Positions 33,376 to 50,042 of a DNA stretch of 50,298 nt are shown in pieces. The DNA is taken from positions 1-50,298 of the forward strand of contig CAZAMC010000004.1 in assembly GCA_964486505.1 (NCBI GenBank), written 5' to 3'. This DNA comes from an uncultured Gammaproteobacteria bacterium (GTDB lineage Bacteria; Patescibacteriota; Patescibacteriia; PEXW01). Under the pieces are notes generated by a model. It saw only the letters and a program-made list of their open reading frames with translations, was not told the DNA's origin and did not search any database. Both the position numbers and the translations under genes were made by a program. Positions within the stretch are counted from its first letter, which is position 1. Each line of letters begins with the position of its first letter.

Positions 33376-33457
33376 CGTTAGCTCGTTTCGTGTTACGCCC
33401 TCCGTGAGCGCGCCGTATGGCTTGCTCACTCCGGGCTCCACACGAAGCCTCGCTTGA

Positions 33458-33508: not shown

Positions 33509-33535
33509 ACCCCGGGGAGACGCTATACTACACAC

Positions 33536-35131
33536 ATGACCAATTCCTGGCGGGCGCACGCCCCCATCCTGACGCTGTTCGGTGTGTTCATTCTCTCGTT
33601 TGGCATCTTCCTTGCACTCCAAGCGCATCCAATTTTTGCCGATCCCGATTCGTTCTACCACGCGCGGATTGGTGCGCTCACGGCGGAGCAGGGCGCCGTG
33701 CGGGACTTCCCGTGGCTACCCTTCACCACGCTCGGCGAACACTACATTGATCAGCACTGGTTGTACCACGTGCTCTTGGTCCCGTTTGTGAAACTCATGG
33801 ATCCGCTGGCGGGGATTAAGTTGGCCACGGTATTCTTCGCGGCACTCCTCATAACCACGTCCGTCTGGTTTTTGATGCGTCAGGGCGTGCGTCAGGCCTG
33901 GATCTGGGGGGCGGTGCTCCTGGCGGCAACGCCCTTTACCTTCCGCATGAGCCTAGCCAAAGCGCCGAGCCTGTCTTTGGCGACACTCATCATCGGCATT
34001 GCCCTACTCTTCGCCGGCAAGCGATGGGGGAGCTTCTTCCTCGCCTGGTTCTTCGTGCTCCTGTACGGCGGATTCTTTGTCCTCCTCGCTGCGGCCGGCA
34101 TCTACCTGGCGGTCTCAATGGCGTTCGATGTCGTGCAGCGCTGGAGCTGGCGTGGGCGCTTGCGCGAGGTCGTGCACAAACCTTGGTGGACGCTCGCGGG
34201 CCTACGTCGCTTTCGGCCACTCCAGGTTTTTGGATGTACAGTCGCCGGCGCGGCGCTGGGCACAGTGGCGAACCCATTCTTCCCGAACACGTTTCACTTC
34301 TTGTGGGAGCAAGCCATTCAAATTGGTGTCGTGAACTACCGCAACGTCATTGGCGTGGGCGGGGAGTGGTACCCGTACGGCTTTACGTCATTCATCGGGA
34401 ACAATGTGGTGGTGGTTGTGCCATTCATCGTCGCCCTCCTTTTAGCCTTCGTGTACCTGCGTCGTACAACGACCCGCAGTTGGACGCTCATTATCCTGGC
34501 GCTCTTCTTCACGCTGTTTACCCTTAAGTCCCGTCGGTACGTTGAGTACGCCGTGCCCTTTCTGGCGCTCGCCGCCGCCGTGACCATTGGCGACGTGCTC
34601 CGACAGGCAGATTGGCAAGCGGTGCGTCGCGTCGTGGCGGAGAGTTGGCAGAAACGCCGAATTGTTACCGGGCTCTTGGCGCTCTACATTGCGGTGAGCG
34701 TGCCGTACGTTATCGCTCGGGATCAGCGCACGAACTACAACAACCTAACGAGCGGCATTAACGCGACGCACTTCAAGGCTTCTGCCACGTGGCTAGCTGA
34801 GCACTCGCAGCCTGGCGAGGTGGTATTCCACAGCGACTGGGACGACTTCCCAGTGCTCTTCTACTACGACACGGTGAACGCGTACATCGCCGGGCTCGAC
34901 CCCACCTTTCTCTACCGTCAGGATCAAACGCGCTACTGGGCGTGGGCCAAGACCACCCTGGGAGAACGGCGCGAAAATTTGGGCCCGGTGTTCGACATGT
35001 TCCGGACGAGGTGGATTTTCGTTGAGAAGGACCACACTGCCATGAACGACAACGTGCGCGTCACGCCGGGCGTAACTCTGGCGTACGAGGACCGGGAAGT
35101 ATGGATTTACGCGTGGGAAGGGACGCCATAA
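33536..35131 (+). CDS. polytopic GT-C-fold membrane glycosyltransferase with STT3/AglB-like motifs
   Basis: ATG at 33536 within the listed 33470..35131 ORF (531 aa), with TATACT 6 nt upstream. It has many hydrophobic segments, a first-loop DPDSFYHAR, and a post-TM ...HSDWDDFPVLFYY resembling a degenerate WWDYG region. Confidence 0.7.
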   Translation: MTNSWRAHAPILTLFGVFILSFGIFLALQAHPIFADPDSFYHARIGALTAEQGAVRDFPWLPFTTLGEHYIDQHWLYHVLLVPFVKLMDPLAGIKLATVFFAALLITTSVWFLMRQGVRQAWIWGAVLLAATPFTFRMSLAKAPSLSLATLIIGIALLFAGKRWGSFFLAWFFVLLYGGFFVLLAAAGIYLAVSMAFDVVQRWSWRGRLREVVHKPWWTLAGLRRFRPLQVFGCTVAGAALGTVANPFFPNTFHFLWEQAIQIGVVNYRNVIGVGGEWYPYGFTSFIGNNVVVVVPFIVALLLAFVYLRRTTTRSWTLIILALFFTLFTLKSRRYVEYAVPFLALAAAVTIGDVLRQADWQAVRRVVAESWQKRRIVTGLLALYIAVSVPYVIARDQRTNYNNLTSGINATHFKASATWLAEHSQPGEVVFHSDWDDFPVLFYYDTVNAYIAGLDPTFLYRQDQTRYWAWAKTTLGERRENLGPVFDMFRTRWIFVEKDHTAMNDNVRVTPGVTLAYEDREVWIYAWEGTP

Positions 35132-36409
35132 ATGCGCCCGATCCTTTCCCATATTCGTTGGCACACCGCAGGTGCCTTCCCGCTCACGCCCGTGGGGCTG
35201 CTGCTCGCCCTTCTCGCCGCGTGCGCACTAGCCATAGGGAGCAGTTTTAGCCCCGCGTACTTTCGCATTCCAGACGCGTGGGTCTTCGTGCTGCGGATTG
35301 TGGGGTGGTCGCTCACCGCGCTGCTCTACTTTCTCTTGCTGCGTCGTGTCCGGGCGGGGGCAGTGCTGCAGACCCGCACAGTCCTTGGGGTTGCCGCAGT
35401 GCTCGCTGCGCCCTTCCTGCTCGCCTTTCCGGTGTTCGCCGGGGACATCTTTGCCTACGTGGCCACCGCCAAGGTAGCAATCCTGGGGAACCCCTACGTG
35501 CTCACCCCCAGCGTGCTGGGGGACGACGCCATTCTCCACGGCGTCTTCGGCATGTGGCAGGGTTGGCCCCTCACGTACGGGCCGCTGTGGGCGGGGTTTG
35601 TGAAAGTCCTCAGCTGGATGACGCATGACAATGCGGCGCTCTTTATGCTTTTTCGGATGACGTCACTGGCAGCGGTGCTCGGCATGGGGGCGGTGCTCTG
35701 CCGGGTGGCGTCACCCGCCCGCGCTGCGCTTCTCCTGTGGAGCCCCATCGTCCTCGTCGATGCGGTTGCTGATGCACACAACGACATTTTCGTCGGGCTA
35801 GCGATTCTCGGGGCGGTGCTCCTCATACATCGTCCGTGGCGATCGGGATTTGCCCTCGCCATTAGCGTTGCCCTCAAGTACACAACGCTGCCTCTCCTGC
35901 CGCTGTTCGTCGCCGCGCAACCCGGCCGTCGGGTCTGGTTGCACCGGACGCTGGCGTACGGTGGCGCCACGGTTTTGACACTATTCCTCTTGTTCCTGCC
36001 CTGGTGGTCCGGTTCCAGCACGTTCCTTGGTGTGCGCAATCAGTCCACGCTGTTCGTGCCGCCCCCAATCACGGCGCAGTACCCATTGTTCTTCACCGCG
36101 TTTTCGGTGGGCGTGCCCGTCCATCCCGAAGTATTTGCGCGTGCCCTTGGCGCTGCCCTCTTCGTGCTCACCCTGGTGTACCTCACCTGGCGTTTGGCAA
36201 CGCGGCGGAGTGCGGTGGTGCCCACCATCGCCTTGGGCATTGGGGCGTACCTTTTCTTCGGTGCCTCGTACGTGCAAGCGTGGTACCTGCTGTGGCTCCT
36301 GCCCCTCCTGCCGCTGCTCGGCCGGCGTGACGCAACCCGGTGGTTTGGCGCGCTGACCGTTGTGTGGGCGTTCTTGCAAGTGTACCCGTACTACTTCTGG
36401 ACCATATGA
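35132..36409 (+). CDS. GT87/DUF2029-like GT-C membrane glycosyltransferase
   Basis: 425 aa, polytopic. Loop motif FAGDIFAYVATAKVAILGNPY ... LTYGPLW. The start abuts the upstream TAA (TAAATG). Confidence 0.7.
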   Translation: MRPILSHIRWHTAGAFPLTPVGLLLALLAACALAIGSSFSPAYFRIPDAWVFVLRIVGWSLTALLYFLLLRRVRAGAVLQTRTVLGVAAVLAAPFLLAFPVFAGDIFAYVATAKVAILGNPYVLTPSVLGDDAILHGVFGMWQGWPLTYGPLWAGFVKVLSWMTHDNAALFMLFRMTSLAAVLGMGAVLCRVASPARAALLLWSPIVLVDAVADAHNDIFVGLAILGAVLLIHRPWRSGFALAISVALKYTTLPLLPLFVAAQPGRRVWLHRTLAYGGATVLTLFLLFLPWWSGSSTFLGVRNQSTLFVPPPITAQYPLFFTAFSVGVPVHPEVFARALGAALFVLTLVYLTWRLATRRSAVVPTIALGIGAYLFFGASYVQAWYLLWLLPLLPLLGRRDATRWFGALTVVWAFLQVYPYYFWTI

Positions 36410-38034
36410 GCGCTCTGGGCATTCGCGGTTTCGTGGCCAAGCACTGGGCATGGCTCGCGCTGCTCGCCGTGCTCGTGGTCACGTCAGCGGTCCGCGTTCG
36501 CCTCCTCGATGTGCCGCTGGAGCGGGATGAAGGCGAGTACGCGTACACCGCGCAACTGCTGCTGGATGGTCACGCGCCATTCGAAGGGGCATACAGCCTC
36601 AAGCTCCCTGGGGCGGCGTACATGTACGCGGCGAGCTTCTTGGTTTTTAGTGAATCGGTCATGGCTATTCGTTTGGGGCTACTCGTGGTTAGTGTCGCAA
36701 CGGCGCTTCTGCTCTTTGGTATTGGCAAACGCCTCGGTGGTGGACTCGTCGGTTTCTCGGCTGCGGCGACCTATAGCCTCGTCGCCCTGCTGCCGTCCGT
36801 CTTGGGATTTACGGCAAATACCGAAGCGTACGCCGTGCTCTTCATTGCCCTTGCGGTGTATGGACTTTTGCGGTTCCACGTAGCTCCACATCTTGGCTTC
36901 CTCATCGTAACCGGTTTATCTTTGGGCGTAGCCATTACCATGAAGCAGCAGGCGCTCCTTTTCTTGCTCTGGGCGTTCGGCTGGGCCAGTGCTCTGGTTT
37001 GGAAGCGGACGCACGCGTGGTTCCACCTGGGCACGCTCGTCCTCTGTGCCCTCATCCCCACCGCGCTCATTGTGGTGTTGTCCTGGGCTTCCGGCACGTT
37101 GCAGACATTGAATTTTTGGATTCTCCAGTACGCCCGAGCCTACACGGGCGAAGTGTCTGGGCTTGAAGCACTTCAGAATTTTTTCCTCACCGGTGGTCCA
37201 ATTCTCCAGCAGACCCTCTTGTTCTTTGCCCTCGCATGTATTGGAGTGGTTTTCTTGATCCGCCAGCCCCGGCGCACACCCTATGGGTGGCCGATACTTA
37301 CCTTTACCGTTACCGCGTGCATTGTGGTGAGCTTGGGCGGGTACTTCCGTGCACACTACTTCATCTTTGCGCTGCCCGCGTACGCGGTGCTCGTTGCATT
37401 CGGAGTCCAGACTTTGCATGCGCGGCTGACCCGCGCACACCCGGCAAGCTTTGCGCAGGCAGTCACGGCTCTGCTTCTGGCAGCGAGCCTTGCATTCCCT
37501 TTCCTCTACCAACGGGCGTACTTCTTCGCCGATAGCCCCGTTGGCGCTGCCCAACGTGCATACAGTACGAATCACTTTGCGGAGTACCGGGAATTTGCCC
37601 GTCAACTTCGGGAGCGTTTTCCCACTTTTCAAACCGTAGTGGTGCTGGGCTCCGAACCCGAGTTCCCGTTCTACCTTCGGGCTCGGCAAGTGACTGGCTA
37701 CCTGTACACGTACCCGTTTTTCGAAACGCAGCCGTACGGAGAACGCATGCTCGACGAATACATCCGGGAAGTTGAAGCCGGACAGCCGGAGGTCATCCTT
37801 GCTGTCGGTTCTTTCGAGTCGTGGTCGGCGCATGTGTGGCAAACCGACAACCGGCTGCGGGCATGGTTTGCGGATTTTCGCCACGGCTACCGCGCCGTTG
37901 GGCTGCTGGCAGTGCAGGGTGGGGCAGTGCAGTACTCGTGGGGTGACGTCGCAGAACCAGATGCGCAGGCTTCTGACTGGGTGGTAGCCTATCAACGGAT
38001 TAACTATGCCAACGACACCCTCCCCACTCCGTAG
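36406..38034 (+). CDS. ArnT/PMT_2-like GT-C membrane glycosyltransferase
   Basis: The ATG at 36406 overlaps the upstream TGA (ATGA). 542 aa. It has LERDEGEYAYTAQLLLDG...LKLPGAAYMY, typical of the ArnT/PMT_2 first loop. Confidence 0.78.
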   Translation: MSALGIRGFVAKHWAWLALLAVLVVTSAVRVRLLDVPLERDEGEYAYTAQLLLDGHAPFEGAYSLKLPGAAYMYAASFLVFSESVMAIRLGLLVVSVATALLLFGIGKRLGGGLVGFSAAATYSLVALLPSVLGFTANTEAYAVLFIALAVYGLLRFHVAPHLGFLIVTGLSLGVAITMKQQALLFLLWAFGWASALVWKRTHAWFHLGTLVLCALIPTALIVVLSWASGTLQTLNFWILQYARAYTGEVSGLEALQNFFLTGGPILQQTLLFFALACIGVVFLIRQPRRTPYGWPILTFTVTACIVVSLGGYFRAHYFIFALPAYAVLVAFGVQTLHARLTRAHPASFAQAVTALLLAASLAFPFLYQRAYFFADSPVGAAQRAYSTNHFAEYREFARQLRERFPTFQTVVVLGSEPEFPFYLRARQVTGYLYTYPFFETQPYGERMLDEYIREVEAGQPEVILAVGSFESWSAHVWQTDNRLRAWFADFRHGYRAVGLLAVQGGAVQYSWGDVAEPDAQASDWVVAYQRINYANDTLPTP

Positions 38035-39157
38035 CTTCCTGCACCCGTGGCAGCACGGGACGCAACCACGTTCGGTGTTTCTGTGGATTGTACTCATTGT
38101 CCTCCTGGGCGTTGCCGCGCGTTTTGCCGTTTCCACCCTTGGGTACAATTACGATTTTGAGTCGTACCAGATTGTCGCTCGCATCATGGCGAACGGCGGC
38201 AACGTGTACCAGGAAACATTCCGCTACAACTACGGCCCGGCGTGGTTTAACCTGCTCCACCTCTTTCAGTCTCTGGCTTCTCATCCCGAGCACTTTCGAC
38301 TCTGCATCATCGGGTTCCTCACACTCGTTGACCTAGCCATTGCCGGCCTTATCGCCCGGCGGTACTCCGTGTTCTTGGGTAGCATCTTTTTTCTCAACCC
38401 TATCTCAATCATCATCACCGGCTTCCACAATCAGTTCGATAACCTTGCGATTGCCCTTGCCCTGGCGGCGGTGTTGGTCTACGAGGCCGGCGATTCTCAG
38501 AAAGGAGCTCGGTCCACCATCTGGGCCGCGGGGCTTTTGGGTGTCTCCCTCATTGTGAAACATATCTTCTTCCTCTTCCCGCTGTGGTTGTTCCTGCGTC
38601 CCGGACCCCGGCAGCGACGCTTGACGATCCTCTTCCTGCCCTACGGAATTTTTCTCGTGTCTTTCTTGCCATACATTGCCCACGGGTACGCTGGAATTAT
38701 TAAGAACGTCATTGCCTACGTTTCCTCGCACAACGCCCCTCTCCTCACCGCTGTCACCGCCGGCCATCTTTCTCCCGCTGTCGCCGGGTACCTTTTTATA
38801 ATGGCTATGCTCGCTGCGGGTATCTGGTTTCGGCGTCTTGCCAGCCTGCACCTCTTCGTCCTCTACCTCGGCACGCTTGTAGCATTCTCTCCCGCCATCG
38901 CAAACCAGTACTACGTCATCCCAGTGCTCTTCATCCTCGCTTTTCCGAATTTCTGGAGTATACTCGCGGGGAGTATTGCCGCCCTTGTTCTCGTTGCGCA
39001 CCCGCAGGGGCTAGATGCAGCCCAGCGGTTCGATAGCTCGGTATTCGCTTTCGTCGTGAGCTACGGGATGTACGCGTACGTCTGCGTACTCTTCGTAAGT
39101 GTTCTCCTCACAGCGCTGAAACTTCGCCGACAACCCCCCGCGTCCAGTTTTTGGTAA
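38006..39157 (+). CDS. GT87/DUF2029-like GT-C membrane glycosyltransferase
   Basis: 383 aa, polytopic. It has YNYDFESYQIVARIMANGGNVYQETFRYNYGPAWF. It overlaps the upstream gene by 29 nt. Confidence 0.68.
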   Translation: MPTTPSPLRSFLHPWQHGTQPRSVFLWIVLIVLLGVAARFAVSTLGYNYDFESYQIVARIMANGGNVYQETFRYNYGPAWFNLLHLFQSLASHPEHFRLCIIGFLTLVDLAIAGLIARRYSVFLGSIFFLNPISIIITGFHNQFDNLAIALALAAVLVYEAGDSQKGARSTIWAAGLLGVSLIVKHIFFLFPLWLFLRPGPRQRRLTILFLPYGIFLVSFLPYIAHGYAGIIKNVIAYVSSHNAPLLTAVTAGHLSPAVAGYLFIMAMLAAGIWFRRLASLHLFVLYLGTLVAFSPAIANQYYVIPVLFILAFPNFWSILAGSIAALVLVAHPQGLDAAQRFDSSVFAFVVSYGMYAYVCVLFVSVLLTALKLRRQPPASSFW

Positions 39158-39166
39158 TCCCTCCAT

Positions 39167-40492
39167 ATGCCCAAACGCGTTGCCATTATTGGTGGAGGGT
39201 ATACCGGGTTGACCGCGGCGTTGCGCCTGGCCCAAGCGGGTATGCAGGTTGAGGTGCTCGAGAAGGGCTTGCACCTTGGGGGTCTGGCATACGGCTTTCC
39301 TCTCCTGGGCACGCACATCGAAGCCGCTTACCATCACCTCTTTCAGAGTGACACCGACATCATTGCGCTCGCGAAGGAGCTGGGTGTAGCGTCCGCCCTT
39401 GAGGCCCATGATAGCTCGGTTGCAATTATCTACCAGAACCACCTGTTTCCGTTTGCTACCCCGTTAGACCTTCTGCGCTTCACGCCCCTCTCATTTTTTT
39501 CGCGCGTGCGCTTGGGTGCTGTGCTCTGGTACCTGCAGCACCGGAAGCAGAGTAGGGCATTTGATGGCATAGCCGCGGCACAGTGGCTTCGACGAGCATG
39601 CGGGGAGGCTGCGTACCGCATCGTGTGGGAGCCGCTCCTGGTGGGGAAGTTCCACACGTTTGCCAACGACGTCTCTATGGCCTGGCTCTGGGCGCGCATT
39701 CACACTCGCGCTACCTCCCGCAGCCGGGGCGGACAGCGGGAGAAGCTTGTGTACGTTCGGGGTGGCTTCCACGTCCTTACCCAGGCGCTTGCCCAGGCCC
39801 TAGAACGCGCCGGCGTTCAGACTCGGTTCCACGTGACGGTCGAGTCTATACATTCAGCACCCAGTGGGGCGGTTGAAGTAATGGTGGATGGCGTAAAGCA
39901 TGCGTACGATGCGGTTGTTTGCACCACGCCCTCGCATATTTTTCGGCGACTCATTGCTCAGGATACGCAGGCAACGCCGGCGTACTTGGAACAGCTTCAG
40001 TCCATGCAGTACCTCGGTGCCCTCTGCGCCGTGTTCTCGTCAACGCAGTCGCTCAGCCCGTACTACTGGCACAACATCCATGATACCCACGCGCCCTTCC
40101 TTGTCTTCCTCCAGCATACCAACCTGGTGTCGCCCGCAGCCTACCAGAACCAGCACGTGTACTACCTGGGCACGTACCTCCCGCACGATCATGTGCTCTT
40201 CACCACGCCCGAGGCACAGGTCCAGGAACAGTTCTTCCGGTACTTGCAGCGTTGCTTTTCAGACTTTGATGCGTCTCAGGTAACGTCTTTTCACCTTTCA
40301 CATTTCCCGAACGCGCAGCACGTTGTGGATACCCGGTACCGCCGTATTCGGCCCGACGTCCAAACGCCGCTCCGAAACGTCTTCCTCTCCAACTTCTCAC
40401 AAATTTTCCCCGAAGACCGCGGCACCAATTTTGCCGTTCGCGCTGGCGAAGACGTTGCCCGCCTTGTTACCCAAGCGCTGCGCACCCCCTAG
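39167..40492 (+). CDS. FAD/NAD(P)-dependent oxidoreductase (amine oxidase / phytoene desaturase / protoporphyrinogen oxidase-like superfamily)
   Basis: 441 aa. N-terminal Rossmann dinucleotide motif VAIIGGGYTGLTAALRLAQAGMQVEVLEK, with GG following (LHLGGLA). No TM segments are apparent. Confidence 0.85.
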   Translation: MPKRVAIIGGGYTGLTAALRLAQAGMQVEVLEKGLHLGGLAYGFPLLGTHIEAAYHHLFQSDTDIIALAKELGVASALEAHDSSVAIIYQNHLFPFATPLDLLRFTPLSFFSRVRLGAVLWYLQHRKQSRAFDGIAAAQWLRRACGEAAYRIVWEPLLVGKFHTFANDVSMAWLWARIHTRATSRSRGGQREKLVYVRGGFHVLTQALAQALERAGVQTRFHVTVESIHSAPSGAVEVMVDGVKHAYDAVVCTTPSHIFRRLIAQDTQATPAYLEQLQSMQYLGALCAVFSSTQSLSPYYWHNIHDTHAPFLVFLQHTNLVSPAAYQNQHVYYLGTYLPHDHVLFTTPEAQVQEQFFRYLQRCFSDFDASQVTSFHLSHFPNAQHVVDTRYRRIRPDVQTPLRNVFLSNFSQIFPEDRGTNFAVRAGEDVARLVTQALRTP

Positions 40493-40512
40493 GGGAGCGC
40501 CGCCGTCACACT

Positions 40513-42144: not shown

Positions 42145-42176
42145 ATATTTTCCACCTGCACAGGTAGTATACGGGT

Positions 42177-42959
42177 ATGTGGAATCTCCAAGATGTTCGG
42201 AAAAAGCACCGGATTGTTGCTGTGCTCCCTGCGTACGAAGCTGAGCACACCTTGGCGCGCACGCTCAACGACATCCCCAGTGACTGGGTCGATGAAATTA
42301 TTCTCGTCGATGACGCTAGCCCGGATGGGACCGTTGTGGAAGCGCGGCGCCTGGGCCTTACGCCCATTGTCCACGAACACAACACGGGGTACGGCGGGAA
42401 CCAGAAGACCTGCTACGCCGAAGCCCTCCGCCGGGGGGCAGACGTGGTCATCATGATCCACCCCGACCACCAGTACGACCCCGTCTTGGTGCCGGAGATG
42501 GTGTTGCCAATCCTGCGCGGCGAAGCCGATGTGGTGTTTGGTTCCCGGATGCTCTGGCGCGGCGGCGCCCGGCGCGGTGGGATGCCGTGGTGGAAGCGCA
42601 TTGCGAACGTTGGCCTGACCGCCCTTGAGAACGCCGTCCTCGGCTTGCACTTGAGTGAGTACCACTCGGGCTTTCGAGCGTACAGTCGCAAGGTGCTCGA
42701 GACGCTCCCATTCCAGCAGAACAGTAACAACTTCGTCTTCGATACGGAGTTCATCATCCAGCTCAAAGTGCACGGCTTCCGCATTCGGGAGATTCCTATT
42801 CCCACGCGGTACTTCAAGGACGCGCACACGGTTGGGTTCCGGGCCGGCGTGCGGTATGGACTGGGCATCCTCCGCGCGCTCAGCGAGTACCTCGTCGGCC
42901 GCTCCGGACGTTTTGCGAGCAAGAAATTCCGCCGACTCCCGACTCCCAGCGACGTATGA
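42177..42959 (+). CDS. GT2 polyprenyl-phosphate sugar synthase (DPM1/GtrB/ArnC-like)
   Basis: 260 aa. It has VAVLPAYEAEHTLARTL, ILVDDASPDGT and a DxD-like region IMIHPDHQYD. TAGTAT lies 6 nt upstream of the ATG. Confidence 0.88.
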   Translation: MWNLQDVRKKHRIVAVLPAYEAEHTLARTLNDIPSDWVDEIILVDDASPDGTVVEARRLGLTPIVHEHNTGYGGNQKTCYAEALRRGADVVIMIHPDHQYDPVLVPEMVLPILRGEADVVFGSRMLWRGGARRGGMPWWKRIANVGLTALENAVLGLHLSEYHSGFRAYSRKVLETLPFQQNSNNFVFDTEFIIQLKVHGFRIREIPIPTRYFKDAHTVGFRAGVRYGLGILRALSEYLVGRSGRFASKKFRRLPTPSDV

Positions 42960-44509
42960 CGAAACTGCAGCGCTGGGCATTCGTGAGCGTGGTTGTTCTC
43001 GCCGCGCTACTTCGCTTTGTAGCGCTTGAGCGCGTACCGTACGGCGTGAATCAGGATGAAGCGAGCCGCGCGTACGACGCTTATAGCCTCCTCGAAACTG
43101 GCCATGACCAGCATGGCAATCCCTGGCCGCTCACGCTGGAGTCGTTCAGTCGTTTTCGCGACAATGCCTCAGCTATTGCCGTGTACGCGGCCATCCCGAC
43201 GACCGCCGTGCTTGGTCCCGGTGTCCTGGCGGTGCGCATTCCCTCGGCCGTTGCGGGCGTGCTGGCCGTGCTCGCTGTTGGGTACGTCGGCTTCGCGCTC
43301 AGTCGTCGGTGGGAAGTTGGAATTTTGGCTTCGTTCCTCTTGGCTGTCTCACCCTGGCACCTGACGCTGAGCCGAACGGGACACGAGGCGATTTGGGCCT
43401 CGACGTTGTTCATCCTGGGCCTGGCCGCGCTGTTGCATGGCCTTCGCCGCCCGCCGTTCATTCTCCTCGCGGCCACAGCCTGGGCGGCGGCGCTCTACGG
43501 CTACCCCATAGCCAAGCTCTTCGTACCGCTCGCGGGCCTGACCTTCGCCATCGTGTACTGGCCCCAGCTTCGTCCCCACTGGCGGTGGGTCACTGGTGGA
43601 GCTCTGCTAGGCCTCATCCTGCTGCTACCCGCGCTCGCCCACCAAGGTACGCTGCCGGATGCGGGCCGCTTGGATGAAATTCTCATTTTCACTGGCGACA
43701 AACCCGCCTGGCTGCCGGTTTTTGCTCTCAACCTCTTGCGCTACATTGATCCGTCCGGCTGGCTGCAAGCTGACCTTACCGCCGGCCCCCTCGATTGGCT
43801 CGCGGCGCTCTTCGGCATTGTACTTTTCTGGTTGCTGGGCAGGTCGCCGGTCTCCCGTCGGGTACGTGTGCTGGGGTTGCTGTGCGTGTTCCTGAGCATT
43901 CTCCCTGCCGCAGTGACGGACTCTAACCCCAGCCAAATTCGCGCCAGCTACTTAGTCCTCTGGGTAGCCATCTTTGGCGGCTGGGGTTTGTGGATGGCGT
44001 ACGAACAGCTGGCGAAGAGTCTACAGGCGCGTAAGTTTTTGCAGGTGGGGGCGCTGGTCATCTTGTCTATCGGGGCAGGGCTGGGAATTTTTTGGATCGC
44101 TCGTCCGGCGTATGCGCTGCGGCAAGGGTATGCGCGGTCGTACATGCCGTACACGCCCATGGCCAAAGACATTGTGCACTTGCTAGAAACGAAGTACGCA
44201 AACGTGCCGAACGTGTACGTGGTGAGTGATAACTTGAATCAGATTCAGGTGTTCTTCCAGACGCTACGACCCTGGCCCCCGCAAGCCTTGGGTGACGACA
44301 TTCACATCAGTCTGCAGAGTGACTTCTGGTATTACACCGACAAGCTGGGGCGCTACTCATTCTGCAAGCTTCGCTCCTGCCCCGTCGCCGGCGAATCGGG
44401 CATCTACGTGCAACTCGCTACCCAGCCAGCACTCGGCAAAAACACGCTTGATCGGCTCGTCTTGCCAAAGCCAGTGGCGAACTACGCCTGGTACGTAACC
44501 CATGACTGA
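42956..44509 (+). CDS. ArnT/PMT_2-like GT-C membrane glycosyltransferase
   Basis: ATGA overlap with the GT2 gene. 517 aa. The first loop is VNQDEASRAYDAYSLLETGHDQHGNPWPL. Confidence 0.78.
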   Translation: MTKLQRWAFVSVVVLAALLRFVALERVPYGVNQDEASRAYDAYSLLETGHDQHGNPWPLTLESFSRFRDNASAIAVYAAIPTTAVLGPGVLAVRIPSAVAGVLAVLAVGYVGFALSRRWEVGILASFLLAVSPWHLTLSRTGHEAIWASTLFILGLAALLHGLRRPPFILLAATAWAAALYGYPIAKLFVPLAGLTFAIVYWPQLRPHWRWVTGGALLGLILLLPALAHQGTLPDAGRLDEILIFTGDKPAWLPVFALNLLRYIDPSGWLQADLTAGPLDWLAALFGIVLFWLLGRSPVSRRVRVLGLLCVFLSILPAAVTDSNPSQIRASYLVLWVAIFGGWGLWMAYEQLAKSLQARKFLQVGALVILSIGAGLGIFWIARPAYALRQGYARSYMPYTPMAKDIVHLLETKYANVPNVYVVSDNLNQIQVFFQTLRPWPPQALGDDIHISLQSDFWYYTDKLGRYSFCKLRSCPVAGESGIYVQLATQPALGKNTLDRLVLPKPVANYAWYVTHD

Positions 44510-45785
44510 CCAACTCGCCAATACGCGTACCTACCGTTGGATGCTGGGCACAATTATTGGTGCCGCGGCACTCCTACGTTTTGCCATGGCACCCAACCTG
44601 GCTTTGGAATCACGGGACGACTCACTCCTGTTTCAGCTCTGGGGGTACAGCGTTGTGGAGCACGGCATCTTGAACGTCTACAGCGCGGAAGTTAACCACC
44701 CGTGGTTTCGAGAAGTGCCGCTGCCCAACTACTTGCCGCCCTACCTTTACGTCGTGGGCGGCCTCGACGAACTTCGGCGCTGGGTAGACCCAACGGGCAA
44801 TGTCGGTACCCCCACGGCCTCGTTCATCTTGAAGTCTATACCGATACTCTTCGAGCTCGGTACCATTCTGCTGCTGGCCACCATTCTCCGCCGCCGATCA
44901 AACAATCGCCTGGCCCTCATCGGCGCCGGCGCCTACGCCTTTCACCCGGCCCTCACCTTCATCACGGCGGGCTGGGGGCAGGTGGATGCCGTCTACACTT
45001 TTGGGCTCGTGCTGTGCGTGTGGCTGCTCGAGCGGCAGAAGTACGCGAGCGCGGCGGCGGTGTGCACCGCCGCGTTCTTGGTGAAGATGCAAACCATTCT
45101 CCTCATTCCGCTCCTCCTCTACGAGATTGCCCGAACGCAACGGGGGAAAATAATGCTGCGGGCGGTGCTTGCGAGTTTCGGCACGGCGGCGGTGCTCTTG
45201 GCGCCGTTCCTCATTGCCGGGAAGGGGATTGAGGTGCTCAAGGTCATTGCGGGGGTTGCGGGTTCGTTCCCGCACCCGTCCGCGAATGCGCACAACCTCT
45301 GGTGGCTGTTCTCGGGTGGGCATTGGCAACTGCACTCCGACACCATGTCCGTACTCGGCGTGCCCATGTACGCGCTGGCAACGGTGCTGTACTTTGCGGC
45401 CGTAGGGTTTGCCCTGTGGTTTCGCCACCGCGTGCGCACGGCCGACGGCCTCTGGCTCACGGCCGCCTTCCTCGCCTTTGCGTTCTTCATGCTGCCCACA
45501 GAGATGCACGAGCGCTACCTCTTCCCATTCTTCGCCCTCTTGCTCCCGGCGTGTGCAGCGTACGTCATGGCTCGGCGCCTCTACGTTGCCGTGGCCTTTA
45601 CCTTCACCTGGAATATCCTCATCGCTTTCTTGGTCATTTCCCACGATGCGGGTTTTGACCGGTTCGAGGATTACTTGGGCAACTACTGGGGCGGTTCGCT
45701 CATCGTCGCCAGTCTCAACGTCTTGCTGTTCCTGGGCGCCGTGGTATGGTATGCCCGTCTCGCCCGCCAACCGAAGCTCGCATGA
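44502..45785 (+). CDS. GT87/DUF2029-like GT-C membrane glycosyltransferase
   Basis: 427 aa. It has ESRDDSLLFQLWGYSVVEHGILNVY...PLPNYLPPYLYVVG. It overlaps the upstream gene by 8 nt. Confidence 0.68.
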   Translation: MTDQLANTRTYRWMLGTIIGAAALLRFAMAPNLALESRDDSLLFQLWGYSVVEHGILNVYSAEVNHPWFREVPLPNYLPPYLYVVGGLDELRRWVDPTGNVGTPTASFILKSIPILFELGTILLLATILRRRSNNRLALIGAGAYAFHPALTFITAGWGQVDAVYTFGLVLCVWLLERQKYASAAAVCTAAFLVKMQTILLIPLLLYEIARTQRGKIMLRAVLASFGTAAVLLAPFLIAGKGIEVLKVIAGVAGSFPHPSANAHNLWWLFSGGHWQLHSDTMSVLGVPMYALATVLYFAAVGFALWFRHRVRTADGLWLTAAFLAFAFFMLPTEMHERYLFPFFALLLPACAAYVMARRLYVAVAFTFTWNILIAFLVISHDAGFDRFEDYLGNYWGGSLIVASLNVLLFLGAVVWYARLARQPKLA

Positions 45786-46513
45786 CGAAGCTTGCCCTCC
45801 TCCTCCCGGCGTACAACGAAGCCACCGTGCTCCCCTGGAGCATCCGGACGTTGTCGGCGTACGCGCAGCAGCACTTGGCCGACTACGACTGGCGGATTGT
45901 GGTGGTGGATAACGGTTCAACGGACAATACCCCCGCGGTTATCGCGGATGTGCAGAAGTCTACGGCCCACCTGGAGCTTCTGCGCATCGCACAGAAGGGC
46001 CGGGGGCGGGCGTTGAAAACAGCGTGGCGCGAGCTCGACTACGACGTGAGTTTGTACATGGACGTAGACCTCGCCGTGGCCTTGGAGGCCGTAAAGCCTG
46101 TGGTTGATGCCGTGGCCCGCCAGGGCGCAGACATTGCCGTGGGTTCTCGGTACGCGCCGGGGGCAAAAGTGGAGCGCTCGTTGAGCCGGAGCATTACGTC
46201 GGTGGGGTACAACGTGCTCACGAAAGCTATTGTTGGCATGCACACCCGAGATGCGCAGTGTGGGTTTAAAGCGATCCGGAAAGATGTTGCCACTCAGTTG
46301 TTGCCCGACGTGCGGGACAACGTGTGGTTCTTCGATACCGAGCTACTCATTCGGGCCGAGCGGCGCCGGCTGCGCATCGCGGAGGTGCCCGTGTCGTGGG
46401 TAGAAACCCGGCCCGCGCTCCGGAAGAGCAAAGTTAAAGTGCTGCGCACGATTGCCGACTACATTGTCCAGCTCTTACGGCTGCGCTGGGGGATTCTCCG
46501 CGGTCGGGTATGA
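45782..46513 (+). CDS. GT2 polyprenyl-phosphate sugar synthase (DPM1/GtrB-like), divergent from 42177..42959
   Basis: The ATG at 45782 (ATGA overlap) within the listed 45746..46513 ORF gives 243 aa. It has LALLLPAYNEATVL, VVVDNGSTDNT and MDVDLA. Confidence 0.88.
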   Translation: MTKLALLLPAYNEATVLPWSIRTLSAYAQQHLADYDWRIVVVDNGSTDNTPAVIADVQKSTAHLELLRIAQKGRGRALKTAWRELDYDVSLYMDVDLAVALEAVKPVVDAVARQGADIAVGSRYAPGAKVERSLSRSITSVGYNVLTKAIVGMHTRDAQCGFKAIRKDVATQLLPDVRDNVWFFDTELLIRAERRRLRIAEVPVSWVETRPALRKSKVKVLRTIADYIVQLLRLRWGILRGRV

Positions 46514-48138
46514 CGCTTGAACCCCGCGAGAAGCGGTTCCTCGCCTGGCTTGCGGTGGCGGTCGTGCTCATCACTAGCGCGCCCTACGTTTTTGGGTGGC
46601 GCGCCACGCCGACTGACCGGACGTACACCGGCATCCACCGGTTAACGCCGGGAGATGTAGCGGTGTACTACTCATTCATCGAGCAGGGCCGGCAGGGCAA
46701 AGTAGTCAGCCGCAACCTCTACTCGTCTGAGGCGCAGCCCGTGCCGGCAGTCTTTACCCCCCAGTGGTACGTCGTGGGTCAGTTTGCAAACCTCTTCCAC
46801 CTGCCCACCGTGCTCGCGTACCAGCTCACGCGGGTTGGCTTCGCTGTCCTCTTCTTGATTTTGGCGTACCGGTTCCTGGCCGGCATCATTGCCCACCCCC
46901 GCGCGAGGATGATTGCCATGTCGATAGCAACGTTTGCCACCGGCTTTGGCGCGCTCGTGCCCATCCGCGACATGGCCGCCGCCGTCCAGCGCATTGCCAT
47001 TCCCGTTGACCTTTGGGTGCCGGAATCGTTCCCGTTCATCTCGCTGTACCACAACCCACTCTTCCTCATGGGCTTGTGTGCGCTCTTGGGCGTCCTGCTC
47101 CTCACCGAACGGGCAATCGAGCTTGGCGACCGTTCGGCGGCCTGGTTGGCGAGCGGCTTGGCGCTGATCTTGGCCCTCATCCACCCGTACGACGTCTTCT
47201 TGCTCGCGGGTATTTTGGCGGCGGCCTGGATTGTGCGGGCCTCTGCTGATCGTTCGTGGCCAACCGCGGGCGCCGCTGTGTACCTGCGCACGGTGGTGCT
47301 TGTTTTGGGACCGGCGATTGTGGCGTTGGGCCTGTCCCGGCTCGTCTTTGCATTGCAGCCGGGCCTCATGGGCTGGGCGGCGCAGAACATCACCCGTTCA
47401 CCGGCGATTGTTTGGTACCTGCCTGCGTATCTCATTCCCCTCATCGTGGCGGCGCTCGGCGTTCGCGCTGCCGCCCACCTTCGCACGACGCGAAGTTTTC
47501 TGGTGCTCGGCTGGGCTATTGCCGTCCCACTCCTGTTGTACTTGCCGTACTTTCCGTACCAGCGCCGGATGATGGAGGGGTGGTTCCTAGCCCTCGTCAT
47601 TCTCGGCACGCTCGGGGTCCTGGCCGTGTGGGCGCGCCTGCGGCCCCACCTCCCGACGCTCGCGCAAACGGCCATCGTCAGCGTCGCGCTCACGTTGGGA
47701 ATTCTGCTCACCGGTATTACCAGCCTCACGCACTTGGCGAAAGACGCATTCTACGCGTCGTATGGGCGCGAGCCGGTTTCAATTCCTCGCGGGCTGACGG
47801 CGGCATTTACCTGGATTCGTGACCACACCGATGACCAGGCCGTCATTCTGGCGCGACCCTACGACGGTAACCTGCTGCCCGGCTGGGCCGGCCGGACGGT
47901 GTACTACGGGCACAGCGACCTCAGCGCCGAGAGCAGCCGGAAAGAGCGCGAACTTGAGCAGCTCTTTCGAGAAGGCACCTTTGCCGCGCAAGACTTTTTT
48001 GCGCGCGAAGGCATTACCCACCTGCTGGTACGGCAAGACGATGTGGAAGCGCGCCATGCGCTGAGCACATTTGCGATGCCCGTTGTCGCGGTGTACGAGA
48101 ACGCCGATGCGACCGTGTACCGGGTGACGGGCTCTTAA
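46510..48138 (+). CDS. GT-C-like polytopic membrane protein with a C-terminal soluble domain
   Basis: ATGA overlap with the GT2 gene. 542 aa. First loop LTPGDVAVYYSFIEQGRQG. The post-TM segment is WIRDHTDDQAVILARPYDGNLLPGWAGRTVYYGH. Confidence 0.65.
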   Translation: MTLEPREKRFLAWLAVAVVLITSAPYVFGWRATPTDRTYTGIHRLTPGDVAVYYSFIEQGRQGKVVSRNLYSSEAQPVPAVFTPQWYVVGQFANLFHLPTVLAYQLTRVGFAVLFLILAYRFLAGIIAHPRARMIAMSIATFATGFGALVPIRDMAAAVQRIAIPVDLWVPESFPFISLYHNPLFLMGLCALLGVLLLTERAIELGDRSAAWLASGLALILALIHPYDVFLLAGILAAAWIVRASADRSWPTAGAAVYLRTVVLVLGPAIVALGLSRLVFALQPGLMGWAAQNITRSPAIVWYLPAYLIPLIVAALGVRAAAHLRTTRSFLVLGWAIAVPLLLYLPYFPYQRRMMEGWFLALVILGTLGVLAVWARLRPHLPTLAQTAIVSVALTLGILLTGITSLTHLAKDAFYASYGREPVSIPRGLTAAFTWIRDHTDDQAVILARPYDGNLLPGWAGRTVYYGHSDLSAESSRKERELEQLFREGTFAAQDFFAREGITHLLVRQDDVEARHALSTFAMPVVAVYENADATVYRVTGS

Positions 48139-50042
48139 CGCTGGAGCGTGAACGCAATGGGCGTGCCCACCCGCTGGGCGTCCTTGTCAATTACCGGCAC
48201 CGCTGAGCGCCAACCATTGAGCGCCAAGTAGCCTTTGGGCACGAGGGCTTGCACCGTGCCGTGTGTGGCTTCGGACGGGATAGCGAGCGTGAAGACGGTT
48301 GTTACTGCTTCGTCTGCAACCCACGAGGTACTCGGCCATAGTCCGTAGCCGAGCGGCAAGAGTCGCGTCTCCACGGTTCGTCCACGCTCATCTTGCCAGG
48401 TGAGCTGTGCCTGCACGTTGCTGAGCGTCGGGTTACCGACTTGGCCTTCGAGCGTTACTGTGGCGAAACCATCCGGTGCCACCATCAGCGAGGAATTTGG
48501 GGTAGCGAGAGAAAATTCCACCCCGCGTAATTCGTCGCGCGTTTTCCGGGTAACCAGCGCCGGGAGAAGATCAAGGCCGGACTTCCGGAACACGAGCAGA
48601 GTATCGTGGACCTCGGTAAGCCGAAGGTCGCGGGCCGCCAGGAAGTCGCGGAAGCGCTGCGCGCCACTCGCGTACTCGGCCTTGCGACTCTCCTTCTCTT
48701 CATACTGCAGCTGGTACGTGGCAAAGTCCTGAGCATCCAGCACCGCAAGCTCCAGATTCGTCGGCACGGGGTAGGGAAGGTCGCTGAATTGCCGCTTCCC
48801 TAAGAAGGCGTAGTGACTGGCGTACACTTGGTCGCGGGCCGCCCAGTCGGTGAGCGTGCTGTAGCCCGCGAGTACCGGTTCGGCTTTCGGCGTTGCCTGG
48901 GCTAGCGTGTGACTTACTTGCGCGCGTTCACGGTCCGCAGGCGATACTGCTGACCACGCACGCACGGCCGAGACCGTTGGCCCAAACGTGAGCGTGCTGT
49001 AGGCGCTCACCGCAATGAGCGTGAGTGTCGCCAGCGGCTTTGCATGCTGGCCCAGCCGGGCAATCCAGTGCGGCGGGCGCTGCGTCAGCCGTTGCCACCC
49101 GAGCACACTTCCGCACAAGAGCCCCGGCAGGAAGAATACCGCGTAGTGCGTTTGTAAGATGAGGTCGCCCGAGCCAAAGCCCGCCAGTCCCACGCCGAGG
49201 AGCGGGAGAACAATGAGCGCGAGCCATCGCCAGGCCAGCAGGGGTAAGCCCAGGACGGGCAGGAGCAACGCAATGCCCACCAAAAGATTTGCTGGTTGGA
49301 ATGCCGCGAGCATACCCGAACCAGCGTTGCTGACGTTCTGGCCAGCGGGCTGAAGGAAGGAGAGGAACTTGTACCCCTCACCATTTATTGATCCGGCGAA
49401 CATGCCCGCGCCAATGAACCAGGCGATGGCGGCGAGCCCCGGCCACAGCCACCAGCGTAGCGGCCGGCGCTCGAGGAGGGCGAGGACAGCAAAGGCGGCT
49501 ACGAGAAGGGCCAGGTCTTCGCGGGTGATGAGCAGCAGCACGCTCCATATCCAAAACGTGTTCAGGCGTTTGTCGGCGTACGCCGTGGCAGCCAGAAACG
49601 CAAAAGGCAGACCCAAGAGCACCGCGTGGAACTCAAACGTGAGCGCATTGAGGGTGAATGGATTCAGCAAGAAGAGCGCGCTAAAGCCGAAGGCGGCCGG
49701 GATGGGGAGGACGCGGCGAGCGAAACGGAAGAGCGCGAACGCGGCGAGAACCACGGCAATGCACTGCGCGGTGATGAGCGTGAGGGCGGTTGGGAAAACC
49801 CGGAAGGGCACGGCGAGGGTCGCGAAGAGCAGCTCCACGTGATCACCAAGGTAGAGGTGGGGGTGGATGGTGAAACCGAAGAGCTGGCCATGACCTGAGA
49901 GCCAGGCTACCTGGGAGTAGATGCCCACGTCGAGGGCGTTCATGGCGCCGGCGTGCAGTTTAGCACTTGCTAGGGTCAGTACCCAAGCAGTAACCAAGGT
50001 ACCGATAGCGCCAAGCGCGAGGAGCGCGGATCGTCGTTGCAT
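48135..50042 (-). CDS. DUF2079-like polytopic membrane protein with a large C-terminal extracytoplasmic domain
   Basis: 635 aa. The N-terminal ALDVGIYSQVAW...LGDHVELL resembles the DUF2079 signature (FDLGIFDQ...HFSP). Its stop codon overlaps the stop of the convergent gene at the palindrome TTAA (48135-48138). Confidence 0.7.
   Translation of the reverse strand: MQRRSALLALGAIGTLVTAWVLTLASAKLHAGAMNALDVGIYSQVAWLSGHGQLFGFTIHPHLYLGDHVELLFATLAVPFRVFPTALTLITAQCIAVVLAAFALFRFARRVLPIPAAFGFSALFLLNPFTLNALTFEFHAVLLGLPFAFLAATAYADKRLNTFWIWSVLLLITREDLALLVAAFAVLALLERRPLRWWLWPGLAAIAWFIGAGMFAGSINGEGYKFLSFLQPAGQNVSNAGSGMLAAFQPANLLVGIALLLPVLGLPLLAWRWLALIVLPLLGVGLAGFGSGDLILQTHYAVFFLPGLLCGSVLGWQRLTQRPPHWIARLGQHAKPLATLTLIAVSAYSTLTFGPTVSAVRAWSAVSPADRERAQVSHTLAQATPKAEPVLAGYSTLTDWAARDQVYASHYAFLGKRQFSDLPYPVPTNLELAVLDAQDFATYQLQYEEKESRKAEYASGAQRFRDFLAARDLRLTEVHDTLLVFRKSGLDLLPALVTRKTRDELRGVEFSLATPNSSLMVAPDGFATVTLEGQVGNPTLSNVQAQLTWQDERGRTVETRLLPLGYGLWPSTSWVADEAVTTVFTLAIPSEATHGTVQALVPKGYLALNGWRSAVPVIDKDAQRVGTPIAFTLQR

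Follow-up and report, generated by a model that had tools for sequence, protein, structure and literature searches.

In the mycobacterial arabinogalactan cluster, several genes for glycosyltransferases of the GT-C fold are found together with those of a lipid-donor synthase and a flavoenzyme. In the ALG/STT3 pathway of the endoplasmic reticulum (ER) lumen, many GT-C enzymes are served by two donors. Three-component systems, in which a synthase is paired with a GT-C enzyme, are represented by GtrABC, ArnC/ArnE-F/ArnT, CsbB/GtcA/YfhO and the polyprenyl-phosphoribose system (Kelly et al. 2024; PMC11194591). Here, we describe a locus related in its logic to these systems, located at positions 33536–50042 of a 50,298-nt stretch of contig CAZAMC010000004.1 (the whole stretch analysed, hereafter the window) from an uncultured bacterium of the Patescibacteriota. 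In our view, this Patescibacteria (candidate phyla radiation, CPR) locus probably specifies an assembly line for a glycan that is built outside the cytoplasm from lipid-linked donors. An earlier reading of this DNA from its letters and open reading frames (ORFs) alone, referred to below as the sequence-only reading, had found the layout unlike any that it recognised. In view of the arabinogalactan cluster and the ALG/STT3 pathway this was too strong a statement. Our full-text literature searches returned no description of the locus, nor any report on the function of DUF2079 or PRK07233.

The block contains 11 plus-strand genes (g1–g11) and one convergent gene (g12; Table 1). There are consequently 12 products and not the 13 (12 plus one) counted in the sequence-only reading, whose breakdown into nine polytopic membrane proteins, two enzymes of glycosyltransferase family 2 (GT2) and one flavoenzyme agrees with the ORFs and with hydropathy. 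The nine large proteins (383–635 aa) have 7–18 hydrophobic stretches each, and g5, g7 and g10 have none. All the junctions and overlaps quoted in that reading are present in the sequence, and its six loop motifs were all found in the translations. Genes g1 and g2 meet in TAAATG at 35129–35134, start and stop codons overlap as ATGA at 36406, 42956, 45782 and 46510, longer overlaps occur at 44502 (8 nt) and 38006 (29 nt), and the other junctions have gaps of 9, 20 and 32 nt. The stop codons of the convergent genes g11 and g12 have TTAA (48135–48138) in common.

The locus was recovered on five related contigs (L083/L084, L085, L086, L088 and L167), and in all of them g1, g2, g7, g8, g9, g10, g11 and the convergent g12 follow one another in the same order. 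The position and orientation of g12 are the same in L083, L085, L086, L088, L090 and L167. The repetition of this gene order on independent metagenome contigs argues against a chance arrangement of the block. The core of the locus is formed by g1, g2 and g7–g12, and the slot between g2 and g7, occupied by g3–g6 in the window, is variable. The flavoenzyme, which the sequence-only reading had counted in a single operon with the other genes, belongs with g4 and g6 to a variable cassette outside the core.

More distant versions of the locus occupy the same address. On a 1.18-Mb contig (L166) and on L168, g1 homologues of approximately 40% identity are found, that of L168 (P0149) being labelled Peregrinibacteria. 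In both, the order is RuvC, YebC, PGI (phosphoglucose isomerase), g1-like gene, methyltransferase, GT87-like gene and GT2, continuing with three unknown polytopic proteins, GT2, MptA_B-like gene and g11-like gene. A reduced version with a Kerfeldbacteria-labelled g1 (L169) reads RuvC, YebC, two ORFs, g1-like gene, several other genes, GT2 and one polytopic protein. The flank in the window reads GT4 (glycosyltransferase family 4), RuvC, YebC, purM-like gene, PGI/PMI (phosphoglucose/phosphomannose isomerase) and g1. The same RuvC–YebC flank in the window and in distant relatives indicates that much of the phylum inherited the locus from a common ancestor and elaborated it to varying extents; the window carries one of the richest versions seen. 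The possibility of a horizontally transferred island was considered and ruled out, since the G+C content of the block matches that of the rest of the window (approximately 60% throughout) and the RuvC–YebC–PGI synteny is kept in distant relatives.

The assignment of all nine polytopic proteins to GT-C glycosyltransferases, proposed in the sequence-only reading, is supported by hidden Markov model (HMM) searches, orthologues, profile–profile comparison with hhalign and, for g1 and g11, Foldseek; the glycosyltransferase activity predicted for them follows from fold and family. Three proteins exceed the Pfam cut-offs: g2 matches GT87 (33.3 bits versus 25), g3 PMT_2 (39.7 versus 26.1) and g12 DUF2079 (106 versus 28.2). 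The scores of g9 are lower (PMT_2 25.0 bits with a cut-off of 26.1, GT87 20.7, ALG3 18), and g8 has a weak PMT match of 15 bits. Precomputed Pfam matches of orthologues point to PF26314 MptA_B_family for g2, to PMT_2 for g8 and to GT87, with weak PMT_2 and ALG3 matches, for g9. For the g6 family, 282 representatives were found in a set of 1.84 billion proteins. Its HMM detects g3 (E = 2.6e-11), and a scan of 67 members showed an N-terminal GtrA_DPMS_TM fusion in 13 and a PMT_2 match in three. Iterated searching from g9 merges with the g2 family, and the joint profile of g9, g4 and g2 (alignment A8) retrieves GPI (glycosylphosphatidylinositol) mannosyltransferase 1 (E = 7e-6) and ALG6 (E = 1.6e-5) from the PDB. 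This GT87-group profile was the only one to reach GT-C structures by sequence; PDB searches with profiles of the g1, g11, g6 and DUF2079 families returned nothing relevant.

An acidic residue in the first loop accompanies these fold and family matches. In family alignments, D36/D38 of g1, D49 of g11, D39/E40 of g6, where the conserved motif is D-E-x-D-N..G-G, and D38 of g12 are invariant or nearly so. D40 of g9 is common to g4 and g2, and g4 shares both this invariant aspartate and an N-Y-x-P motif with the g9/g2 group (A8).

BLAST comparison among the nine membrane proteins gave no significant pairwise match. These proteins, called paralogues in the sequence-only reading, are therefore not recent paralogues, and their relationships have to be sought with profile and structure methods. 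In local mode, hhalign linked g8 to g3 (97.9%), g1 to g11 (96.5%, in the C-terminal half), g4 to g9 (95.8%), g4 to g2 (92.6%), g9 to g3 (92.6%) and g12 to g3 (93.5% over 387 columns); an unrelated 24-member polytopic family used as a control stayed below 1% against every family. The g12–g3 comparison is our test for DUF2079, a family that we take to belong to the GT-C clan of Pfam. Global-mode hhalign gave a high probability for almost every pair and was not relied on, and the links g1–g3 and g11–g3 were dropped after scoring 1% and 26% in local mode. On this profile and model evidence, the nine proteins fall into three distant groups: an STT3-fold group (g1 and g11), a PMT_2/DUF2079 group (g3, g6, g8 and g12) and a GT87/ALG3-like group (g2, g4 and g9). 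The family HMMs of the nine proteins detected no further GT-C enzyme elsewhere in the window.

Five of the nine (g1, g4, g6, g8 and g11) have no significant Pfam match of their own, and it could be argued that most of the polytopic proteins are transporters, polymerases or ligases, or structural proteins, and that the cluster is not a glycan pathway. However, all five are tied to GT-C by fold search, by an orthologue, by family members or by profile–profile comparison with a negative control. No competing fold emerged, and among the Foldseek results for g1 and g11 transporter folds appear only at E > 0.05 with a probability of at most 0.2. This explanation is largely refuted and we regard it as extremely improbable.

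The two members of the STT3-fold group lie beyond the reach of sequence families. For g1, there is no Pfam or NCBIfam match, no Pfam STT3 match even at E = 0.1, and no PDB sequence match of the family profile at E = 1. The AlphaFold2 (AF2) model of g1 (mean predicted local distance difference test score 92.7, predicted TM-score 0.91) has 13 long helices followed by an alpha/beta domain at residues 406–531. In Foldseek searches of the PDB, the best match is STT3 (E = 7e-10, query-normalized TM-score 0.62), followed by AglB, DPY19, PglB, AftD, ALG12 and ArnT; STT3, AglB and PglB lie between 7e-10 and 4e-7. The isolated globular domain of AglB-S2 (3vu0) matches the C-terminal domain of g1 weakly (E = 0.3–0.6, target-normalized TM-score approximately 0.5). 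Similarly, g11 has no significant Pfam, no NCBIfam and no meaningful PDB sequence match, and no STT3 match at E of 0.1 or below. Its AF2 model (mean local score 91.9) matches STT3 (E = 3e-9), AglB, AftA (query-normalized TM-score 0.61), DPY19, AftD, PglB and ArnT. All of the matches at E < 1e-3, 23 for g1 and 28 for g11, are GT-C enzymes. The g1 family (505 homologues, all of the named ones being Patescibacteria or an unclassified ‘bacterium’) is widespread, and no other membrane protein of the locus is as well conserved as g1. The g11 family is lineage-specific, with 27 homologues found, the named ones mostly Patescibacteria.

Both proteins share with STT3, AglB, PglB and DPY19 the overall fold, with query-normalized TM-scores of 0.5–0.64, the acidic motif of loop 1 and a C-terminal extracytoplasmic alpha/beta domain. 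Unlike these enzymes, they have neither sequence-level membership of STT3 (GT66) nor the WWDYG motif, and they are shorter by approximately 150–300 residues. The 13 transmembrane helices of the g1 model, its C-terminal globular domain and its closeness to STT3, AglB and PglB allow speculation that g1, possibly along with g11, acts as a genuine oligosaccharyltransferase. A glycan assembled by the other GT-C enzymes on polyprenyl (pyro)phosphate would then be moved en bloc to Asn or Ser/Thr of surface proteins, as would suit the high conservation of g1 and a family so widespread in Patescibacteria. The invariant residues of g1 (D36-P-D38 in loop 1, R137, E277, R334 and W435-D436) occur in an order and spacing similar to those of Campylobacter lari PglB, which we take to be D56, R147, E319, R375 and WWD; this parallel is a lead and not a test. 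However, W435-D436 lies within HSDWDDFP and not within the canonical motif, the sequence matches expected of an STT3 protein are missing at the thresholds given above, and DPY19, AftD, ALG12 and ArnT, which use monosaccharide donors, match g1 almost as well. In addition, no initiating phosphoglycosyltransferase or Wzx-type flippase was found among the window ORFs scanned. En bloc transfer by g1 therefore seems to us rather improbable.

The sugars used by an assembly line of GT-C enzymes would have to be supplied by g7 and g10, which match Glycos_transf_2 of Pfam (73.9 and 86 bits) and are 25% identical to each other. As proposed in the sequence-only reading, both resemble enzymes of the DPM1/GtrB/ArnC type. 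The best PDB match of g7 is PfDPMS from Pyrococcus (E = 2e-7), with GpgS at E = 1e-4; that of g10 is again PfDPMS (E = 2e-15, residues 3–236), followed by ArnC (E = 1e-8). In NCBIfam, AglJ, PpgS and a dolichyl-phosphate hexose transferase are the best matches of g7, and the last of these, AglJ, PpgS and ArnC those of g10, all below cut-off. The best scores, 66 bits against a cut-off of 325 (AglJ) for g7 and 54 against 375 for g10, are so far below that both enzymes stand outside the characterized orthologue groups. The family evidence nevertheless supports g7 and g10 as candidate members of the class of polyprenyl- or dolichyl-phosphate sugar synthases. Neither has C-terminal transmembrane helices, an architecture that resembles the DPM1/Ppm1 type. 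The most conserved gene of the locus is g7, and its homologues of at least 54% identity occur on hundreds of metagenome contigs. In 41 unrelated metagenome loci with g7 homologues, PMT_2 is the commonest flanking family (nine of 54 ORFs), with two further ORFs matching PMT and one TMEM260-like, which fits a donor synthase serving GT-C enzymes.

The PGI/PMI gene directly upstream of g1 matches the NCBIfam bifunctional phosphoglucose/phosphomannose isomerase over its full length (E = 1e-62), below the curated cut-offs. In the distant clusters L166 and L168, too, the g1 homologue is immediately preceded by a bact-PGI gene. The isomerase is a possible source of mannose-6-phosphate. The conservation of this neighbour makes mannose a plausible candidate for one of the donor sugars.

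The content of the slot between g2 and g7 varies. It holds g3, g4, g5 and g6 in the window, g6 and g5 in L085, an additional 332-aa GT2, a DUF2142 gene, g4, a split g6 and g5 in L083, g3 and then different polytopic genes, marked by a ‘WNDEAE’ loop motif, in L086 and L088, and g3 alone in L167, where a g6-like gene is found upstream of g1. Accordingly, g3 is present in the window, L086, L088 and L167 and absent from L083 and L085, and an orthologue of g4 was found in L083/L084 only. Genes g5 and g6 co-vary, both being present in the window, L083 and L085 and both absent from L086 and L088. At the place of g4–g5–g6, L086 (5835–9960) and L088 (8283–9956) encode a polytopic protein of 557–576 aa with the loop motif ‘LMWNDEAETAMYA’, and L086 also a 785-aa protein; these are probably further GT-C types. 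The g6 orthologue of L083 (6710–9788), and likewise that of L084, is split by an insertion sequence with HTH_38/rve and Y1_Tnp transposase genes. L083 also has g8 as three tandem copies, each 44–46% identical to g8 of the window. In the locus, g8 is always directly 3' of g7. The split g6 and the triplicated g8 of L083 indicate that the cluster is under active remodelling. In L083 and L085, a methyltransferase gene follows g1.

Such a modular and variable content, with cassette swaps, tandem copies and an insertion in g6, would also be expected if the locus were an island of independent decoration modules of the Gtr/Arn/YfhO type, each consisting of a synthase and a GT-C enzyme. In that case, two lipid-linked sugars would be shared and single sugars placed on different, already existing targets, for example type IV pilins, proteins of the S-layer or elsewhere on the surface, peptidoglycan or a polymer of the wall. 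The reduced Kerfeldbacteria-labelled locus, with just its g1-like gene, one GT2 and one or two polytopic proteins, resembles a module of this kind, the GT-C enzymes come from three distant groups without pairwise similarity, and pilin genes adjoin the cluster of L167. Published three-component systems act in this way, including the glycosylation of pilins by the GT-C enzyme TfpW (PMC11194591). However, eight core genes kept in one order in all close relatives are easier to reconcile with a single pathway than with eight unrelated targets, just two donors are provided for nine transferases, and the GtrA HMM found no flippase partner in the window for any module. We therefore consider independent modules unlikely, while keeping them in view as the main competitor of a single assembly line.

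The flavoenzyme g5 of the variable cassette belongs to NCBIfam NF005560 (PRK07233), a family named ‘hypothetical protein’, which it matches over residues 4–437 of 441 with 431 bits against a cut-off of 252. It also matches Amino_oxidase of Pfam (107 bits) and NAD_binding_8. Its family profile finds phytoene desaturase 5mog as the best PDB match (E = 9e-18, over the whole length), followed by an uncharacterized Pyrococcus protein and protoporphyrinogen oxidases. An assignment of g5 to DprE1-type oxidases was considered and rejected, these having FAD_binding_4 and the vanillyl-alcohol-oxidase fold; a DprE1-like role for g5 would be an analogy and not homology. In L001/L002, the g5 protein is identical to that of the window, the identical protein being carried by the sequencing runs SRR14932662 and SRR14932695, and family members approximately 50% identical are found across many CPR lineages. 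The family also occurs in genomes labelled Verrucomicrobiota, including a metagenome-assembled genome (MAG) labelled Akkermansia muciniphila, in Chloroflexota, in cyanobacteria and in actinomycetes such as Streptomyces.

The full cluster was absent around the g5 homologues of 80 GTDB genomes of other phyla (loci L003–L082, with the homologue at approximately 10001–11300 in most). Among 69 same-strand ORFs upstream of these homologues, GT2 was found 25 times, LPG_synthase_TM (an MprF-type flippase-like family) 16 times and GtrA 10 times. The order is GT2, GtrA and g5 homologue in the Akkermansia-labelled MAG (L017, e.g. 8581–11308), and GT2, ORF, g5 and a g6-like GT-C in a proteobacterial MAG (L047). 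The flavoenzyme family is thus much wider than the locus and has partners of its own, and its association looks like an uncharacterized and widespread module for lipid-linked sugars. In the CPR and Verrucomicrobiota-type loci examined, a GtrB-like GT2 of approximately 320 aa and GtrA accompany PRK07233 in a conserved pair or triplet. In Dehalococcoidales and Chloroflexia MAGs (L040 and L053), the PRK07233 gene follows that of an LPG_synthase_TM protein of approximately 340 aa.

From the folds, families, gene packing and conservation described above, we infer an order of action, lipid donors, a common acceptor and a role for g5. At the cytoplasmic face, g7 and g10 would charge polyprenyl phosphate with sugars taken from nucleotide sugars, each enzyme with a different one, as their homology suggests. 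The two polyprenyl-phosphate sugars would then be flipped to the outer face, where the nine GT-C enzymes would use them, forming one linkage each, and would build a branched heteroglycan stepwise on a surface acceptor. The core (g1, g2 and g7–g12) may produce the conserved part of the glycan and the swappable cassette (g3–g6) a lineage-specific decoration. Within the cassette, g5 would most likely oxidize a lipid-linked intermediate, at its sugar or at its polyprenyl moiety, and so provide a third donor for its partner g6. Being the first gene and the best conserved membrane gene, g1 is the leading candidate for contact with the acceptor, which could be a surface protein or a lipid anchor.

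Several observations weigh against this assembly line. No recognized flippase (GtrA, Wzx or MATE) is encoded in the window: the GtrA HMM had no match in any ORF of at least 70 aa at E of 10 or below, and the locus has no dedicated flippase gene of the ArnE/F type either. Pfam families of Wzx/Wzy, ABC (ATP-binding cassette) exporters and initiating phosphoglycosyltransferases, whose absence was already remarked in the sequence-only reading, and of MATE found no match among the window ORFs scanned. The sole membrane transporter nearby, an EamA/DMT protein 6 kb upstream (26548–27444), is the only candidate flippase near the locus, and a speculative one. The enzyme activities proposed are predictions from homology and fold. 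The NCBIfam scores of g7 and g10 below cut-off, and the likeness of g7 to GpgS, a soluble enzyme, make the sugar and the lipid acceptor assigned to them provisional. The weakest GT-C case is g4, for which profile–profile comparison of a three-sequence family suggests the assignment. The absence of g5 from some otherwise complete clusters indicates that it is dispensable for the core product, and the nearest relatives of known structure have carotenoids and porphyrinogens as substrates, not sugars. The nine enzymes could also have several targets instead of the single acceptor supposed here. Finally, a scan for promoters and terminators gave counts equal to or below those of shuffled sequence, which is neutral as to operon status.

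Table 1. Genes of the glycan locus and its upstream neighbour, with the range of amino acid identity between the window and its relatives
Gene	Position	Strand	Length (aa)	Assignment	Evidence	Identity (%)
PGI/PMI	32261..33322	+		PGI/PMI-type sugar-phosphate isomerase (context gene, directly upstream of g1)	Pfam bact-PGI_C, 84 bits
g1	33536..35131	+	531	GT-C, STT3/AglB-like fold, C-terminal alpha/beta domain	AF2 and Foldseek	78–82
g2	35132..36409	+	425	GT-C, GT87/MptA-MptB type	Pfam GT87	46
g3	36406..38034	+	542	GT-C, PMT_2 type (ArnT/PMT-like), variable part	Pfam PMT_2
g4	38006..39157	+	383	GT-C distantly akin to g9/g2 group, variable cassette	hhalign	50
g5	39167..40492	+	441	Soluble FAD enzyme, NF005560/PRK07233, variable cassette	NCBIfam, Pfam	57–59
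g6	40513..42144	+	543	GT-C related to PMT_2, variable cassette	Family-member matches	31–41
g7	42177..42959	+	260	GT2 without transmembrane helices, candidate polyprenyl-phosphate sugar synthase A	Pfam Glycos_transf_2	85–90
g8	42956..44509	+	517	GT-C, PMT_2 type	Orthologue Pfam	43–46
g9	44502..45785	+	427	GT-C, GT87/ALG3-like group	Orthologue Pfam, iterated search	49–54
g10	45782..46513	+	243	GT2 without transmembrane helices, candidate polyprenyl-phosphate sugar synthase B	Pfam Glycos_transf_2	72–74
g11	46510..48138	+	542	Polytopic GT-C, STT3/AftA-like fold, C-terminal alpha/beta domain	AF2 and Foldseek	52–65
g12	48135..50042	-	635	DUF2079 membrane protein, C-terminal soluble domain of ~240 aa	Pfam DUF2079	65–69

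The mycobacterial and corynebacterial system to which the locus can be compared comprises, as we take it, Ppm1 with PimE, MptA, MptB and MptC for lipomannan and lipoarabinomannan, and the arabinogalactan cluster with UbiA, DprE1/DprE2, Rv3789 and AftA/AftB/EmbCAB. As in that system, polyprenyl-phosphate sugars would be made inside and used outside by many single-linkage GT-C enzymes, there are members of GT87/MptA_B type (g2 and g9), the GT-C genes are clustered and include a flavoenzyme gene among them, and the short GT2 enzymes without transmembrane helices resemble the catalytic domain of Ppm1 in architecture. Unlike it, the locus belongs to the Patescibacteria, has no UbiA-type synthase dependent on phosphoribosyl pyrophosphate, no GtrA-like homologue of Rv3789 and no DprE2-like partner, includes STT3-fold and DUF2079 members, and has all twelve genes in one overlapping block; its flavoenzyme is related to phytoene desaturase and protoporphyrinogen oxidase (NF005560) and not to the FAD_binding_4 family of DprE1. 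The likeness to the N-glycan and GPI pathways of the eukaryotic ER, where DPM1 and ALG5 feed ALG3/9/12/6/8/10 and PIG-M/V/B, and then STT3, lies in the two lipid-phosphate sugar synthases and in a series of GT-C enzymes including ALG3/ALG6/PIG-M-like and STT3-fold members. However, the system described here is bacterial and confined to one locus, has no sign of a pyrophosphate-linked oligosaccharide precursor or of sequon-directed transfer, and its proteins are 10–14% identical to the eukaryotic enzymes.

With the three-component systems, the locus shares the pairing of a GT2-type synthase with a GT-C enzyme; fusions to GtrA are frequent in the g6 family, and the g5 family elsewhere adjoins a GtrB-like GT2 and GtrA. 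It differs from them in having no flippase in the 50-kb window and nine GT-C enzymes for two synthases instead of one for one, and g7 and g10 differ from GtrB and ArnC in having no C-terminal transmembrane helices. A commentary of 2024 mentions Bacillus clusters with multiple GT-C enzymes and FAD-dependent oxidoreductases (PMC11194591). The locus differs from the known systems in its host phylum, in bringing together three groups of GT-C enzymes, among them DUF2079 and two STT3-fold families without a Pfam model, and further in the synthases without transmembrane helices, a flavoenzyme fold unlike that of DprE1, the absence from the window of a recognizable flippase or primer enzyme, and the single overlapping block with a swappable centre.

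Patescibacteria represent a large share of bacterial diversity and have genomes of approximately 1 Mb. To our knowledge, every member in culture lives attached to another microbe, and what they display at their surface is almost unknown. The locus, which is of relevance to CPR cell-surface biology, takes up approximately 1.5% of a genome of about 1 Mb, and its fixed position across distant lineages together with its variable centre is the pattern expected for a surface glycan that hosts or phages drive to diversify. In a recent study of the Saccharibacteria pilus, glycosylation in this group was termed ‘unexplored’ (PMC11623550). As a tentative and rather doubtful extension, many Patescibacteria might possess an undescribed glycosylation pathway similar to that of the ER lumen at the position RuvC–YebC–[PGI/PMI]–g1. 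It would be headed by a miniature, Pfam-less STT3-fold family, with over 500 homologues, whose members would attach glycans to surface proteins, for example pilins, or would anchor a lipoglycan; the swappable GT-C cassette would diversify the glycan, and PRK07233 would be a new oxidoreductase acting on lipid-linked sugars or polyprenyl to make a non-standard donor. If this were true, the ability of these episymbionts to attach to hosts or to evade phages would depend to a major extent on the surface glycan. The locus supplies candidates for future studies: two donor synthases, the two new STT3-fold families of g1 and g11, a DUF2079 member and the PRK07233 flavoenzyme family, which is found in association with GtrB/GtrA-type genes as far afield as Verrucomicrobiota, Chloroflexota, cyanobacteria and actinomycetes.

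The small-genome CPR host suspected in the sequence-only reading is supported by the labels of g1 homologues and by the presence of one relative's cluster on a 1.09-Mb contig. Homologues of 69–79% identity bear the label ‘Patescibacteria group bacterium’ or ‘Candidatus Parcubacteria bacterium’, and those of 40–44% identity the label Kerfeldbacteria or Peregrinibacteria. Besides the glycan locus, the window encodes tsaD, valS, pilB, yidC, dnaA, dnaN, a class A penicillin-binding protein, a galT-like gene, several GT4 enzymes, RuvC, YebC and the purM-like gene; scans for tRNA genes and with Rfam returned nothing. Between 27.5 and 30.9 kb, the real genes are GT4, RuvC and YebC on the minus strand, and the plus-strand ORFs of this interval are spurious. 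Long minus-strand ORFs also run antisense to real genes at 32858–33661, 36916–38148, 42141–42980, 44898–45920 and 46779–47729; with 267–410 aa and translations rich in Arg, Gly and Pro, they look like artefacts of the 60% G+C content and not like genes.

Immediately past the DUF2079 gene of L167, three genes of the T4SS_pilin family (13722–15331, minus strand) encode possible targets of glycosylation. As the window ends 256 nt after g12, the equivalent region is not visible here. The purM-like gene of the window (31048–32160, plus strand; AIR synthase family, 166 bits against a TIGR00878 cut-off of 236) lies between YebC and PGI/PMI, a position at which it is not found in L166 and L168.

A second block of sugar-related genes, mostly on the minus strand, is located at 20060–29861 and includes a galT-like uridylyltransferase, an APH-type kinase, a sucrose-phosphate-phosphatase-like hydrolase of the haloacid dehalogenase type and the EamA/DMT transporter. 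Four GT4 genes belong to this block (20980–22029, 22285–23343, 24323–25705 and 28422–29861), the last of them MshA-like with 294 bits, below cut-off. By analogy with PimA/PimB, and speculatively, these GT4 enzymes could be responsible for priming a lipid acceptor on the cytoplasmic side. Beside the class A penicillin-binding protein, a minus-strand ORF of 622 aa (18131–19999) without Pfam or NCBIfam match or hydrophobic segment encodes an unknown soluble protein. The genes yidC (minus strand), dnaA (12365–13747) and dnaN (13801–15090) are grouped within 10683–15090, which suggests that the window spans the chromosomal replication origin; the glycan locus starts approximately 20 kb from dnaA.

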